Below, in pieces: positions 38,358 to 43,547 of a DNA stretch of 64,000 nt. Numbering within the stretch: position 1 is the first letter of the stretch; each line of letters starts with the position of its first letter. The stretch lies in the NCBI GenBank assembly GCA_002282385.1, contig NCJG01000004.1:12254-76253 (forward strand), read 5' to 3'. Source of the stretch: Sphingomonadales bacterium 39-57-19 (lineage in GTDB: Bacteria; Pseudomonadota; Alphaproteobacteria; Sphingomonadales; Sphingomonadaceae). The translations under genes and the position numbers were made by a program. The notes below the pieces were generated by a model. The model searched no databases, had not been told where the DNA came from, and worked only from the letters and a program-made list of their open reading frames with translations.

Positions 38358-39329
38358 TTACATTTCCCCGCGTTCGCGGCGGATTGCATACCATTTTTTG
38401 ACGTTGGCGTTGTGCTGTTGCAGCGTGTCGGCAAACACATGGCCGCCCTTGCCATCGGCGACGAAGAACAAGGCGCTCGTCGCTTGCGGGTTCAGCACGG
38501 CGGCAATCGCCGCGCGTGACGGATTGGCAATCGGACCCTTTGGCAGGCCCCTCATCGCATACGTATTATAGTCGTTGACGTCGGCTATTTCGGATTTGCG
38601 GATGCGGCGGCCAAGCGGTTTACCCTTGGTAATCGGGTAAATGATAGTCGGGTCAGCCTGAAGCATCATGCCCTTGCGCAGGCGGTTGGAATATACCCCG
38701 GCCACAATCCGCAGTTCGGATTTCAGCGCGGTTTCCTTTTCGACAATCGACGCCAGCGTCAACGCCTCAAGCGGCGTTTTAACGACCGTGTTGGGGCTAC
38801 GCTTTGGCCAAAGCTCGTCCATTGTTTTTGTCATCGCGTCTTGCATGCGTTTGAGCACGGCAGCGCGTGGCTCGCCTATGCCAAAGGCATAGCTGTCGGG
38901 CAGCACGGAGCCTTCGGCCGGCATTGCGATAGTGCCGCTGAGACGGTCATTCGCCATCAAGCGTTCGTATACCATGATCGATGGCATCCCCTCAGGGATC
39001 GTGACCATCCGCTGGACGGTTTTGCCGCCGGTCAGGATGGATAATATCTCGGCATTCGACGCCTGCGGTTGGATGATGAATTCGCCAGCCTTAATCGTGC
39101 TGGTGCCGCCAAAAATTCGCGCGCGGTTCACGAACGCATCGGCGGACTTGATAACACCGTCTTTTTCAAGCTGCTGTGCGGCCAGGGTAATGCTTGAACC
39201 GGGCTTGATAACGACAGTCACTTCGCGCTCCAGCGGGCCCGGTGCGGTCCAGCCGTAGATGAAGTTGCCCGCAATGATAGCAAGCAGCAGCGCCGCCGCT
39301 AATATCGCCCATCTGGCGAGGCGGCGCAT
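38358..39329 (-). CDS. mltG: Endolytic transglycosylase MltG
   Basis: Motifs TIPEG, LASIVEKET, LQADPT, YNTY and GLPKGPIANP. Confidence 0.95.
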   Translation of the reverse strand: MRRLARWAILAAALLLAIIAGNFIYGWTAPGPLEREVTVVIKPGSSITLAAQQLEKDGVIKSADAFVNRARIFGGTSTIKAGEFIIQPQASNAEILSILTGGKTVQRMVTIPEGMPSIMVYERLMANDRLSGTIAMPAEGSVLPDSYAFGIGEPRAAVLKRMQDAMTKTMDELWPKRSPNTVVKTPLEALTLASIVEKETALKSELRIVAGVYSNRLRKGMMLQADPTIIYPITKGKPLGRRIRKSEIADVNDYNTYAMRGLPKGPIANPSRAAIAAVLNPQATSALFFVADGKGGHVFADTLQQHNANVKKWYAIRRERGEM

Positions 39330-39333
39330 ATCG

Positions 39334-40590
39334 TCAGATAGCCTTCATGATCAAGCTGGCATTGGTACCGCCAAAGCCAAAGCTGTTGTTCAACACAGCT
39401 TTCACTTCGCGCTTTTTGGCCACATGCGGTACCAAGTCGACGCCTTCAGTGCCTTCATCGGGATTGTCCAGATTGAGCGTTGGTGGAACGATTTGATCGC
39501 GGAGCGCGAGGATGCAGAAAATGCTTTCGACCGCGCCAGCGCCGCCCAAAAGATGGCCGATGGCGGACTTGGTCGAGCTCATGGAGACGTTCGCAATCGC
39601 ATCACCAAATAGACGCTTCACAGCACCCAGTTCGATGGTGTCGGCCATCGTCGATGTGCCATGGGCGTTGATATAATCAATATCGCTTGGCGTCATGCCC
39701 GCCTTTTTCAACGCCATCTGCATCGAACGATAGGCGCCGTCGCCATCGGGGTGCGGCGCGGTGACGTGATAGGCATCACCCGAAAGGCCATAGCCCACGA
39801 CTTCGGCATAGATTTTAGCGCCGCGCGCCTTTGCGTGCTCATATTCTTCCAGAACGATAACGCCTGCGCCTTCACCCATAACAAAACCGTCGCGGTCCTT
39901 GTCATAAGGGCGGCTTGCGGCTTCGGGACGGTCGTTAAAGCTCATGTTCAATGCACGCGCTTGCGCAAAGCCCGCAATACCCAGTGGGTTGATCGTGCCC
40001 TCCGCGCCGCCAGCCAACATGATGTCCGCATCATCATCGCGGATCATACGCGCGGCATCACCAATGGAATGCGCGCCGGTGGAACAGGCGGTCACCACGG
40101 CGTGATTGGGGCCTTTTAGGCCATATTTAATGCTGACCTGACCAGAGATCAGGTTGATGAGCCGGCCATGCACAAAATGCGGGCTGACGCGGCCGGGGCC
40201 TTTTTCAGCGAGCAACAATGCTTCGCTTTCAATGCCGGGCAGACCGCCAATGCCGGATCCGATGGAGCAGCCAGCGCGCACCTTTTGTTCTTCGGTCAAT
40301 TCGGTGAGGCCGGCATCTTCCAATGCCTGACCTGCGGCATCGATGCCGTAAATGATAAAGGGATCAACCTGCCGCTGAACCTTGTGGTCAACGCGCTTGT
40401 CGGGGTCAAAGCCCCATGCGTGGTCCTTTGGCTTAACCTCGCAGGCAATATGACATTTATGGTCGCTGGCGTCAAAACGCGTAATCATGCCTGCGCCGGA
40501 TTTTCCAGCAATCAGGTTGGACCATGTCGTTTCGACATCAGCCCCCAAAGGTGTGACCAGACCCAGTCCAGTGACCACGACACGACGCAT
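39334..40590 (-). CDS. fabF: Beta-ketoacyl-ACP synthase II
   Basis: Motifs TACSTG, NAHGTST, KSAIGHLLG and NSFGFGG. Confidence 0.97.
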   Translation of the reverse strand: MRRVVVTGLGLVTPLGADVETTWSNLIAGKSGAGMITRFDASDHKCHIACEVKPKDHAWGFDPDKRVDHKVQRQVDPFIIYGIDAAGQALEDAGLTELTEEQKVRAGCSIGSGIGGLPGIESEALLLAEKGPGRVSPHFVHGRLINLISGQVSIKYGLKGPNHAVVTACSTGAHSIGDAARMIRDDDADIMLAGGAEGTINPLGIAGFAQARALNMSFNDRPEAASRPYDKDRDGFVMGEGAGVIVLEEYEHAKARGAKIYAEVVGYGLSGDAYHVTAPHPDGDGAYRSMQMALKKAGMTPSDIDYINAHGTSTMADTIELGAVKRLFGDAIANVSMSSTKSAIGHLLGGAGAVESIFCILALRDQIVPPTLNLDNPDEGTEGVDLVPHVAKKREVKAVLNNSFGFGGTNASLIMKAI

Positions 40591-40739: not shown

Positions 40740-40973
40740 TCAGCCGTTGCTGTTGATGAAGTCGATCGCGTCCTTGACGGTAGCGATCTTTTCAGCCGCA
40801 TCGTCAGGAATTTCAACGTTGAATTCTTCTTCGAACGCCATGACGAGCTCAACGATGTCGAGGCTGTCTGCGCCAAGATCGTCGATGAAGCTTGCAGCTT
40901 CCGTGACCTTGTCAGCTTCAACGCCGAGATGCTCAACTACAATTTTTTTGACCCGTTCTGCGGTATCGCTCAT
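40740..40973 (-). CDS. acpP: Acyl carrier protein
   Basis: DLGADSLD phosphopantetheine site; start ATG 40973 (MSDTAERV). Confidence 0.97.
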
Positions 40974-41066: not shown

Positions 41067-41804
41067 TCAAAGCATCGCCATGCCGCCATTTACATGGATT
41101 GTCTGGCCAGTGACATAGCCAGCCTCTCTCGACGCGAGATAGGCCACCGCAGCGCCAATATCCGCGCCTTCGCCCATGCGACCCATCGGGATACGCGCAT
41201 TTAGCGCTTCCTTTTGCGCATCGGGTAAAGTTTCGGTCATCGCGGTCGCAATGAAGCCCGGCGCGACGCAGTTTGCGGTGACATTGCGGCTCGCCAGTTC
41301 CTGCGCAATCGCCTTGGTCATGGCGGTGAGGCCGCCTTTTGATGCGGCATAATTGGCCTGTCCCGGGTTTCCCGTGGTGCCCACAACGCTGGTTATCGTA
41401 ATGATACGGCCAAAGCGCGCTTTCATCATCGGTTTGGTCGCCGCGCGCATGAGGCGGAATGTCGCTTCGAGGTTGATGCGGATGACGTCATCCCATTCCT
41501 CATCCTTCATGCGCATGGTCAAATTGTCGCGTGTCACGCCCGCATTGTTGACCAATATGTCGATCTTGCCCAATTTTTCGAGCGCAGCCGGGACAAGCGC
41601 TTCGACGCTATCCTTGTCGCCAAGGTTGCATGGCACCGCGACATGATCGCCGCCCAGTGATGCGCGAAAGGCTTCAAGTTTTTCGACGTTGGAGCCTGAA
41701 ACAGCCAGCTGTGCGCCTTGCGCCACAAGCGCGTGGCAGATTGCGCTGCCAATACCGCCCGATGCCCCGGTGACGAGTGCTGTCATGCCAGTAAGATCAA
41801 ACAT
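41067..41804 (-). CDS. fabG: 3-oxoacyl-ACP reductase
   Basis: Motifs TGASGGIG, NNAGVTRD, GNPGQANYAASK and VAPGFI; start ATG 41804. Confidence 0.95.
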   Translation of the reverse strand: MFDLTGMTALVTGASGGIGSAICHALVAQGAQLAVSGSNVEKLEAFRASLGGDHVAVPCNLGDKDSVEALVPAALEKLGKIDILVNNAGVTRDNLTMRMKDEEWDDVIRINLEATFRLMRAATKPMMKARFGRIITITSVVGTTGNPGQANYAASKGGLTAMTKAIAQELASRNVTANCVAPGFIATAMTETLPDAQKEALNARIPMGRMGEGADIGAAVAYLASREAGYVTGQTIHVNGGMAML

Positions 41805-41805
41805 A

Positions 41806-42609
41806 TTATTCTCCCTTAAACTCGGGTGCGCGTTTTTCGAGAAACGCGGTGATGGCTTCGTCATTATCCGCGGTGGCATGCGCAAGGCTTTGCATCGCGG
41901 CAGACATTTCGAGGATGTTTTTCAGGTCCGCCGTCTGCCCTTCGCGCAACAGCCGCTTGGTCATGCGGACGGCATGTGGCGGGTTGGCGGCGATCTTGTC
42001 CGCCACCTTGCGCGCAGCATTCATCAGATCGGCATCGTCCACGACTTCGGACACAAGGCCGATGCGCAGCGCCTCTGCCGCGTCGATGGTTTCGCCTGTC
42101 AACGCAAGCTCGGTCGCTTTGGAAAAGCCGACGATGCGGGGCAAAAGCCATGCGCCGCCATCACCCGGCGTAATGCCAAGGCGCACAAAGCTTTCCGCGA
42201 ATTTGGCTGACGCAGCCGCAATACGAATGTCGCACATCGTGGTCAGGTCAAGCCCTGCGCCGATGGCGGGGCCGTTGACGGCCGCAACAACGGGCACCTC
42301 AAGCGCCTGAAACATCAGCGGCAACCGCTGAATACCATATTTATAGTTCCGCCGCGTTTCAGCTGGCAATCCGGCGCGCAGGCCGCCGCTGTCGGGGCGC
42401 ATCTGTTTCAGATCGCCGCCCGATGAGAATACCGTTCCGGCCCCCGTTAGGATGACGCAGCGCACCGACATATCTTGGTCCGCCGCCATGAAGGCATCGC
42501 AAATCTGTTCGACGACGCCGACGTCCGATATCGGGTTGCGCTTTTCCGGCATGTTCATCGTGATGGTCAATATGCCGCCATCGCGCGACTGGAGAATTTG
42601 GTCCGTCAT
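41806..42609 (-). CDS. Crotonase/enoyl-CoA hydratase superfamily protein, non-canonical active site
   Basis: Motifs FSSGGD, VNGPAIGAG and ALRIGLV; TAATG overlap with fabD, 1 nt from fabG. Confidence 0.9.
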   Translation of the reverse strand: MTDQILQSRDGGILTITMNMPEKRNPISDVGVVEQICDAFMAADQDMSVRCVILTGAGTVFSSGGDLKQMRPDSGGLRAGLPAETRRNYKYGIQRLPLMFQALEVPVVAAVNGPAIGAGLDLTTMCDIRIAAASAKFAESFVRLGITPGDGGAWLLPRIVGFSKATELALTGETIDAAEALRIGLVSEVVDDADLMNAARKVADKIAANPPHAVRMTKRLLREGQTADLKNILEMSAAMQSLAHATADNDEAITAFLEKRAPEFKGE

Positions 42610-43547
42610 TATATGGCTTTCAACAAAGCTTCGATGTCATCCATGCTGATGACGCTCGAGGTGGTGATGTCTTCATGCGTGCTGCGCTTCACCATAGGAG
42701 ATAGCACTTTGCCGCCGAATTCAACGAAATGGGTAACGCCAGTTTCCGCCATCGCGATTGCGGACTCACGCCAGCGCACGCGGCCGGTTACCTGCTGCAC
42801 CAATTGCGCGGCGATGATGTCGGGTTCGGATACCGGCGCTGCCGTCACGTTCGCAAAAAGCGGGACCAGCGGCGCATGAATGGTCGTCGTGCCAAGCGCG
42901 CTTTGCATTTCATCGGCTGCAGGTTGCATCAATGGACAGTGAAAGGGTGCAGATACCGGCAACAATATACCGCGCTTGATCCCATGGTCCTTGGCCAGCT
43001 CAATGGCGCGATCAATTGCGCCTTTATGCCCTGAAATGACGACCTGCGACGGATCATTGTCATTTGCCACGGTGCAGGTTTCGTCCTGCGCCGCAGCCGC
43101 AGCCAACGCTTCGGCTTTCTCGATATCTGCCCCAAGCAACGCAGCCATCGCGCCAATACCAACGGGAACAGCGGCCTGCATGGCGCGACCACGAAGCTTC
43201 AACAATGCCGCCGTCACAGACAATGGCAGCGCGCCAGCGGCACATAGCGCGCTATATTCGCCCAAAGAATGGCCCGCGACGAAATTGCATTTCTCCGAAA
43301 GGCGGACGCCGCCTTCGGTTTCGAGCACGCGCAAGGTCGCAATGGCATTTGCCATAATCGCAGGCTGGGCATTTTCGGTCAGCGTAAGCTCGCTTTCGGG
43401 GCCATCACACATCAACCGGAACAGATGTTGGCCAAGCGCTTCGTCGACTTCCTGAAACACCGCGCGGGCGGTGGGGCTGGCGTCGGCGAGCGCTTTGCCC
43501 ATGCCAACCGCCTGGCTGCCTTGTCCTGGAAATATAAATGCGCGCAT
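42609..43547 (-). CDS. fabD: Malonyl-CoA:ACP transacylase
   Basis: Motifs FPGQGSQ, GHSLGEY and SAPFHC. Confidence 0.97.
   Translation of the reverse strand: MRAFIFPGQGSQAVGMGKALADASPTARAVFQEVDEALGQHLFRLMCDGPESELTLTENAQPAIMANAIATLRVLETEGGVRLSEKCNFVAGHSLGEYSALCAAGALPLSVTAALLKLRGRAMQAAVPVGIGAMAALLGADIEKAEALAAAAAQDETCTVANDNDPSQVVISGHKGAIDRAIELAKDHGIKRGILLPVSAPFHCPLMQPAADEMQSALGTTTIHAPLVPLFANVTAAPVSEPDIIAAQLVQQVTGRVRWRESAIAMAETGVTHFVEFGGKVLSPMVKRSTHEDITTSSVISMDDIEALLKAI

Follow-up and report, generated by a model that had tools for sequence, protein, structure and literature searches.

Within the fatty acid synthesis operon of Sphingomonadales bacterium 39-57-19, a crotonase gene is wedged between fabD and fabG, in a 64,000-nucleotide stretch of the genome analysed here as a whole (the window). 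The favoured reading, with a probability of roughly 0.6, is that the gene encodes an acyl-CoA crotonase of the PRK09245 subfamily, the usual partner of PimCD-like acyl-CoA dehydrogenases (ACADs), that was inserted in the fab operon of one genus-level clade and has been kept there for expression. In the ancestor of this clade, a copy of the crotonase gene would have been inserted between fabD and fabG and later compacted into translational coupling, to be transcribed today with the fab genes, with the chemistry and the thioester carrier (CoA) of the enzyme presumably unchanged. The fab location would then supply constitutive expression for the crotonase, not a step of the FAS II cycle. The gene arrangement, its distribution, the membership in the family, the usual neighbours, the purifying selection and the lack of change specific to the clade are shown by the data, whereas use of a CoA ester, hydration versus isomerisation as the reaction, and a place outside FAS II are inferred.

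The source genome (2.31 Mb, 20 contigs, 99.99% complete) carries the cluster on the minus strand of the window in the order fabD, crotonase, fabG, acpP, fabF and a yceG/mltG-like gene. The fabD gene (42609-43547, 312 amino acids), encoding malonyl-CoA:ACP transacylase, matches PF00698 and TIGR00128 (273.5 bits, cut-off 260.9), and fabG (41067-41804, 245 amino acids), encoding 3-oxoacyl-ACP reductase, matches TIGR01830 (317.5 bits, cut-off 297.75), which places both products above their NCBIfam equivalog cut-offs. Between them lies the crotonase gene (41806-42609, 267 amino acids). Further downstream are acpP (40740-40973), an open reading frame for an acyl carrier protein of 77 amino acids with the DSL motif in its translation and 86-100% identity across the loci of the genus, and fabF (39334-40590, 418 amino acids), the one full-length KAS I/II gene that the genome search recovered, with a PF00109 match of 202 bits inside the reading frame (G000:C15:52085-52843). 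The conserved cluster ends with a gene of 323 amino acids (38358-39329), 59-86% identical to its counterparts in the genus and assigned as yceG/mltG-like through the homologous locus L001, where the 323-amino-acid gene after fabF carries PF02618.

Both junctions of the crotonase gene are tight. At the TAATG junction, the fabD stop codon TAA (42611-42609) and the crotonase ATG (42609-42607) share one base, and the crotonase stop codon TAA (41808-41806) is followed by a single base (41805) and then by the fabG ATG (41804-41802). The fabG ribosome-binding site, read from the sequence as AAGGGAGA (41817-41810, minus strand), sits within the final codons of the crotonase gene, with a spacing of 5 nt to the fabG ATG. 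The original prediction had described exactly this position, overlap, one-nucleotide gap and embedded ribosome-binding site, and all were confirmed, with the genes on the minus strand. No terminator-like sites above background were found within fabD-crotonase-fabG. Additionally, contigs from metatranscriptome libraries of three separate studies bridge both crotonase junctions at 95-99% identity, among them a 992-nt contig spanning 41728-42719 and another spanning 42331-43426. These contigs, used for junction bridging only and with their depth left out of any expression ranking, fit co-transcription of fabD, the crotonase gene and fabG; they cannot prove a single transcript, and DNA carry-over in the libraries is possible. 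Coupled junctions and RNA-library contigs together support the co-expression with the fab genes that had been claimed from the sequence.

The crotonase gene is real and functional, and it is under purifying selection. Across 12 species its dN/dS is about 0.10, next to 0.08 for fabD and 0.06 for both fabG and fabF, with synonymous sites near saturation among the species compared, and none of the approximately 45 species that carry the insertion has a disrupted reading frame. A functionless passenger, whether decaying or neutral, is therefore very improbable: the interval does accept unrelated cargo and the crotonase was lost once, as described below, yet such a passenger is contradicted by a selection regime similar to that of fabD at near-saturated synonymous sites, by the intact frames and by the retention of every family-invariant residue. 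The two tight junctions, together with retention in about 45 sampled species at 76-100% identity and a dN/dS of about 0.1, indicate selection for expression with the FAS II genes. Such selection is in agreement with a lipid-related role for the crotonase and counts against the CoA reading.

The protein itself is a crotonase over its full length, matching PF00378 (ECH_1) at residues 10-266 (E 1.1e-62) and NF006699 (PRK09245) over residues 1-266 with 392.9 bits (cut-off 354); an ACAD-adjacent relative (L062) reaches 410.9 bits on the latter model. Its AF2 model has a pLDDT of 92.8, and the top 50 Foldseek matches of this model are crotonases throughout. The characteristic motifs are GAGLDL (residues 117-122), FAESFV (137-142) and PGDGG (148-152), where the canonical hydratase of the same genome (C16:116298-117059) has GGGCEL, QPEIK and PGMGG. 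Aligned with this hydratase, Asp121 takes the position of the first Glu, Phe141 that of the second Glu and Asp150 that of the Met, which bears out the earlier claim that the two-Glu hydratase pair is missing and that an extra Asp occurs in PGDGG. In rat enoyl-CoA hydratase the catalytic residues are Glu144 and Glu164. Having Asp121 and Phe141 in place of the Glu pair rules out the two-Glu hydratase mechanism, and the protein was rejected as a canonical enoyl-CoA hydratase for this reason, although it shares the crotonase fold and the oxyanion-hole glycine motifs with such enzymes. The Asp pair may support either hydration or proton-shuttle isomerisation.

Residues D121, D127, R129, F141 and D150, like the motifs GxGxD[LIVM] and PGDGG, show no variation across 40 orthologues (42-100% identity) in any genomic context, while Glu139, the Glu of FAESF, is not invariant and varies among more distant relatives. 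The invariance of Asp121, Asp127, Arg129 and Asp150 argues for a catalytic rather than a binding protein. The Asp/Phe/Asp signature is also widespread among the representatives of 50%-identity clusters. Judged from these alignments, Asp121, Phe141 and Asp150 are marks of the whole NF006699/PRK09245 subfamily and not of the location in the fab operon. A reading of these residues as a specialisation for the fab operon is accordingly not supported, as PRK09245 copies beside acyl-CoA dehydrogenases have the same residues.

The best solved relative is 7MCM from Mycolicibacterium smegmatis, an uncharacterised structural genomics entry (E 1.8e-70, 47% identity), which shows the same GAGxDL, FAESF and PGDGG motifs in alignment. 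Literature searches on 7MCM and PRK09245 found no paper and no activity described for the family. The second-best match, and the nearest characterised relative, is PaaG, a 1,2-epoxyphenylacetyl-CoA/enoyl-CoA isomerase (Thermus thermophilus 6SL9, 6SLA and 6SLB; Escherichia coli 4FZW), with 38-39% identity and a TM score of 0.86-0.88. Both PaaG and the window crotonase are without the second catalytic Glu and have an Asp in the P-x-x-G-G loop. However, the PaaG Asp that the D136N mutation of 6SLA replaces falls on Gly149 in the alignment, so that Asp150 of the crotonase stands one position later, and at the first-Glu position the crotonase has an acid (Asp121) where T. thermophilus PaaG has Ser. 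The crotonase scores 206.3 bits on the PaaG equivalog TIGR02280, under the cut-off of 345, and there are no paa genes near it. On the basis of the score and the position of the catalytic Asp, membership in the PaaG isomerases was rejected. A further comparison concerns RpfF/DspI-type DSF synthases, which are crotonases that act on 3-hydroxyacyl-ACP and depend on the two catalytic Glu. The window crotonase shares their fold and could conceivably take an ACP-borne substrate, but with Asp121 and Phe141 it was rejected as a synthase of this type; no rpf-type signalling genes were seen near it.

Among the other sampled species of this freshwater sphingomonad genus, about 45 of 60 have a crotonase orthologue (76-100% identity), which directly follows fabD wherever fabD is on the same contig. 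Proteins of 78-80% identity are labelled as originating from Sphingorhabdus sp. MAGs. Genus members without the crotonase have a fabD-fabG gap of 2-8 nt. In a tree of fabD, fabG and fabF, basal lineages without the crotonase (G147, G159, G091 and G131) are followed by a crotonase-bearing clade, within which one subclade without it, mostly of larger genomes, is nested. This topology suggests, with moderate support, one gain and at least one loss of the crotonase. In the nested subclade that lost it, fabD abuts fabG, and the loss means that the crotonase is dispensable in this subclade. The fab-linked crotonases group together as one clade in the protein tree (support 95/96), and the length of its stem, 0.13, is unremarkable. 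The spacers around the crotonase gene are 95-490 nt long in divergent species, compared to the overlap and the single base in the lineage of the window.

Outside the genus, the family has an orthologue (44-70% identity) in 51 of 120 genomes, sampled from 112 other genera, and none of these adjoins fabD. Across the Alphaproteobacteria an orthologue is present in 53 of 250 genomes, and the crotonase was next to fabD in none of the 40 alphaproteobacterial loci fetched. Thus, in contrast to the window crotonase, no NF006699 member outside the genus was seen at fabD-fabG in either sample. The conservation of the insertion across Sphingomonadales, raised with the original prediction, was not borne out, the insertion being confined to a clade of one genus. 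Literature searches on crotonases within fabD/fabG operons found no description of the arrangement.

The crotonase gene is not the sole occupant of this interval. In G171 a PD-(D/E)XK_3 gene lies between the crotonase gene and fabG, and G157 has two such extra genes, a GNAT gene after fabD and ahead of the crotonase gene, and another PD-(D/E)XK_3 gene between the crotonase gene and fabG. These sister-species insertions are small PD-(D/E)XK_3 (GxxExxY-type) and GNAT acetyltransferase genes, at L034:3733-4194 and at L036:995-1459 and 2283-2714. The fab operon of the genus accumulates unrelated cargo and the interval from fabD to fabG is permissive, which makes position in the operon weak evidence of membership in the pathway. 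Two species have additional stretches of 2.2 kb and 0.66 kb between fabG and acpP (L037:1200-3465 and L039:6480-7142), with open reading frames that have no Pfam match. In G158, the crotonase (L039:4939-5739) is 94% identical to that of the window, whereas the flanking fabD, fabG and fabF are 84-87% identical; this contrast hints that members of the genus have recently exchanged the inserted gene. G158 is without a close ACAD orthologue.

Given its position, the crotonase could be thought to act on ACP-borne intermediates of FAS II, either as a FabM-like trans-2/cis-3-enoyl-ACP isomerase in an oxygen-independent unsaturated route, or as a hydratase or diverting enzyme on enoyl- or 3-hydroxyacyl-ACP. 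FabM is the streptococcal trans-2/cis-3-decenoyl-ACP isomerase, a protein of the crotonase fold encoded in the fab cluster of a host without FabA. The window crotonase has the same fold and a similar setting: its gene is coupled in translation to fabD on one side and fabG on the other, acpP and fabF follow downstream, and the genome has no FabA. RNA-library contigs that bridge both junctions, the missing two-Glu pair and PaaG, an isomerase, as the nearest characterised relative also speak for a substrate of this kind, and the chemistry of enoyl-CoA isomerases and FabM is identical apart from the carrier. The gene content of the source genome points the same way, with one FabZ-type hotdog gene and a KAS I/II complement of one full gene, the fabF of the window, and one weak PF00109 match. 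The genome also has one fabH above the cut-off and four desaturase-family genes.

A wider comparison counts against an acyl-ACP substrate, which is rather unlikely. FabA was found in none of 121 Sphingomonadaceae genomes and in none of 61 genomes of the genus, in a search whose control recovered the FabA proteins of E. coli and Caulobacter. The check for fabA and fabB that had been proposed found neither, but they are equally absent from all 121 family genomes with or without the insertion. Being a trait of the whole family, the absence of FabA/FabB gives no pointer to a FabM-like substitute; most of the 121 FabA-less genomes have no fab insertion. The phyletic test likewise gives no support, with the orthologue in 51 of 120 family genomes and a fab-linked copy in this genus only. 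Genus members without the crotonase keep the same fab cluster, and desaturases are kept in both states, with 1-5 desaturase-family genes in genomes that have the crotonase (none in one 85%-complete genome) and 2-7 in those that do not. Complementary gene loss was therefore rejected, since these counts show no difference by crotonase state in 60 genus genomes. A further contrast to FabM is that relatives of the window crotonase accompany acyl-CoA dehydrogenases, and the loss of the gene in one subclade also counts against a FAS II step.

A change of function after the insertion was sought in the form of clade-specific fixed substitutions. Approximately 130 fab-linked sequences were set against 16 outside orthologues: of the 267 positions, 81 are conserved on both sides, and only one fixed difference was found, N249 in the former versus H in the latter; neofunctionalisation was rejected on this basis. 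Judged by sequence, the fab-linked crotonase gives no sign of a new specificity. An acyl-ACP substrate is also less likely because the clade shows no change of its own when compared with orthologues encoded next to acyl-CoA dehydrogenases. Crotonases mainly recognise the pantetheine arm, so an unchanged sequence is compatible with the use of acyl-ACP. Recruitment of the crotonase, with no visible sequence change, as a FAS II enoyl-ACP isomerase or hydratase in a genus without FabA/FabB is decidedly unlikely. If true, it would represent a second, independent FabM-like origin and an oxygen-independent or cheaper monounsaturated route in streamlined freshwater sphingomonads. A predicted complex of the crotonase with AcpP scored 0.00, which is evidence neither for nor against. 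Of the original prediction, the co-expression and the missing Glu pair stand; the acyl-ACP role that it put forward is rather unlikely. Desaturase-family genes aside, the classical FabA/FabB route does not account for monounsaturated fatty acid synthesis in the Sphingomonadaceae, and the crotonase is one cheap candidate to exclude. Literature searches on FabM found only general papers on unsaturated fatty acids, and those on Sphingomonas FabA/FabB and on PimC/PimD with a hydratase found nothing relevant.

The favoured reading, that of a CoA-dependent enzyme expressed from the fab operon, draws on the neighbours that the subfamily has elsewhere. As plain open reading frame calls are unreliable in high-GC relatives, with spurious long frames, gene context there was determined by filtering frames on GC content per codon position and by tblastn panels. 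An ACAD gene lies within 5 kb of the crotonase gene in 24 of the 40 alphaproteobacterial loci and is directly adjacent in 13, commonly in the order large ACAD, small ACAD, crotonase. The best NCBIfam matches of these neighbouring ACADs are PimC and PimD, the subunits of pimeloyl-CoA dehydrogenase, though under the equivalog cut-offs. In four Sphingomonadaceae genomes the crotonase gene is part of a thiolase-SDR-crotonase-ACAD-ACAD cluster, accompanied by acyl-CoA synthetases and by another hydratase of the canonical type, and a 56%-identical metagenomic representative adjoins an ACAD pair, a LysR regulator and a P450. Other Sphingomonadaceae copies are singletons beside ribBA, rpoA or trmFO. 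Because the subfamily normally lies beside PimC/PimD-like ACADs, its most likely reaction is hydration or isomerisation of the enoyl-CoA that those enzymes produce; the 'acyl-CoA' label, a putative one, is drawn entirely from gene neighbourhood.

The source genome has both partners, with its ACAD pair (C15:82349-84772) not adjacent to the crotonase gene but 28 kb from it. The large subunit of this pair is 59-70% identical, and the small subunit 48-55% identical, to those of crotonase-adjacent pairs. Within the genus, nearly every genome of the main clade has the pair, and the basal, crotonase-less G131, G147 and G159 lack it; 12 genomes have the pair without the crotonase, and four have the crotonase without the pair, three of which are 72-87% complete. 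In the family sample, genomes with the ACAD pair have the crotonase in 21 cases and are without it in 10, and the corresponding numbers for genomes without the pair are 30 and 59. The association of ACAD pair and crotonase across the family is positive and modest, and since related genomes are not independent samples, these co-occurrence counts overstate it. In the source genome, the PimC/PimD-like pair sits between phaC and a phasin gene outside the window (L083:5353-10227, corresponding to G000 C15:81606-86480), an unusual neighbourhood that might link acyl-CoA oxidation to PHA metabolism.

A CoA-acting crotonase might also serve lipid homeostasis tied to FAS II, by processing or holding acyl- or enoyl-CoA that lipid turnover or the PHA-linked ACAD pair supplies, with its amount tracking fatty acid synthesis. 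The selection for co-expression with fab genes across the clade, the reduction of the 95-490 nt spacers of divergent species to overlaps in the lineage of the window, and the orthologous ACAD pair between phaC and the phasin gene all speak for such a role. EchA6 of mycobacteria, a crotonase without catalytic activity that reportedly supplies acyl-CoA to FAS II, is loosely analogous. However, position is the sole link of the crotonase to FAS II, the invariant Asp121, Asp127, Arg129 and Asp150 favour catalysis over binding, and the gene is dispensable in one subclade, leaving this role unlikely. If instead the crotonase acts on CoA esters outside FAS II, as favoured here, the locus provides a cautionary case in which a coupled gene wedged in a core operon need not join its pathway, and in which a guilt-by-association call is corrected by wider family context, namely the ACAD partners and the other cargo at the site. 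The crotonases of PRK09245 form a large and widespread family, which has a solved structure, an active site of the Asp/Phe/Asp kind and PimCD-like dehydrogenases as conserved partners. The source genome also encodes a second beta-oxidation-type cluster (G000 C18:70310-79549) with an ACAD, a canonical enoyl-CoA hydratase, an acyl-CoA synthetase, a thiolase and an SDR, and the place that the PRK09245 type takes in relatives is here occupied by another crotonase, of 37% identity.
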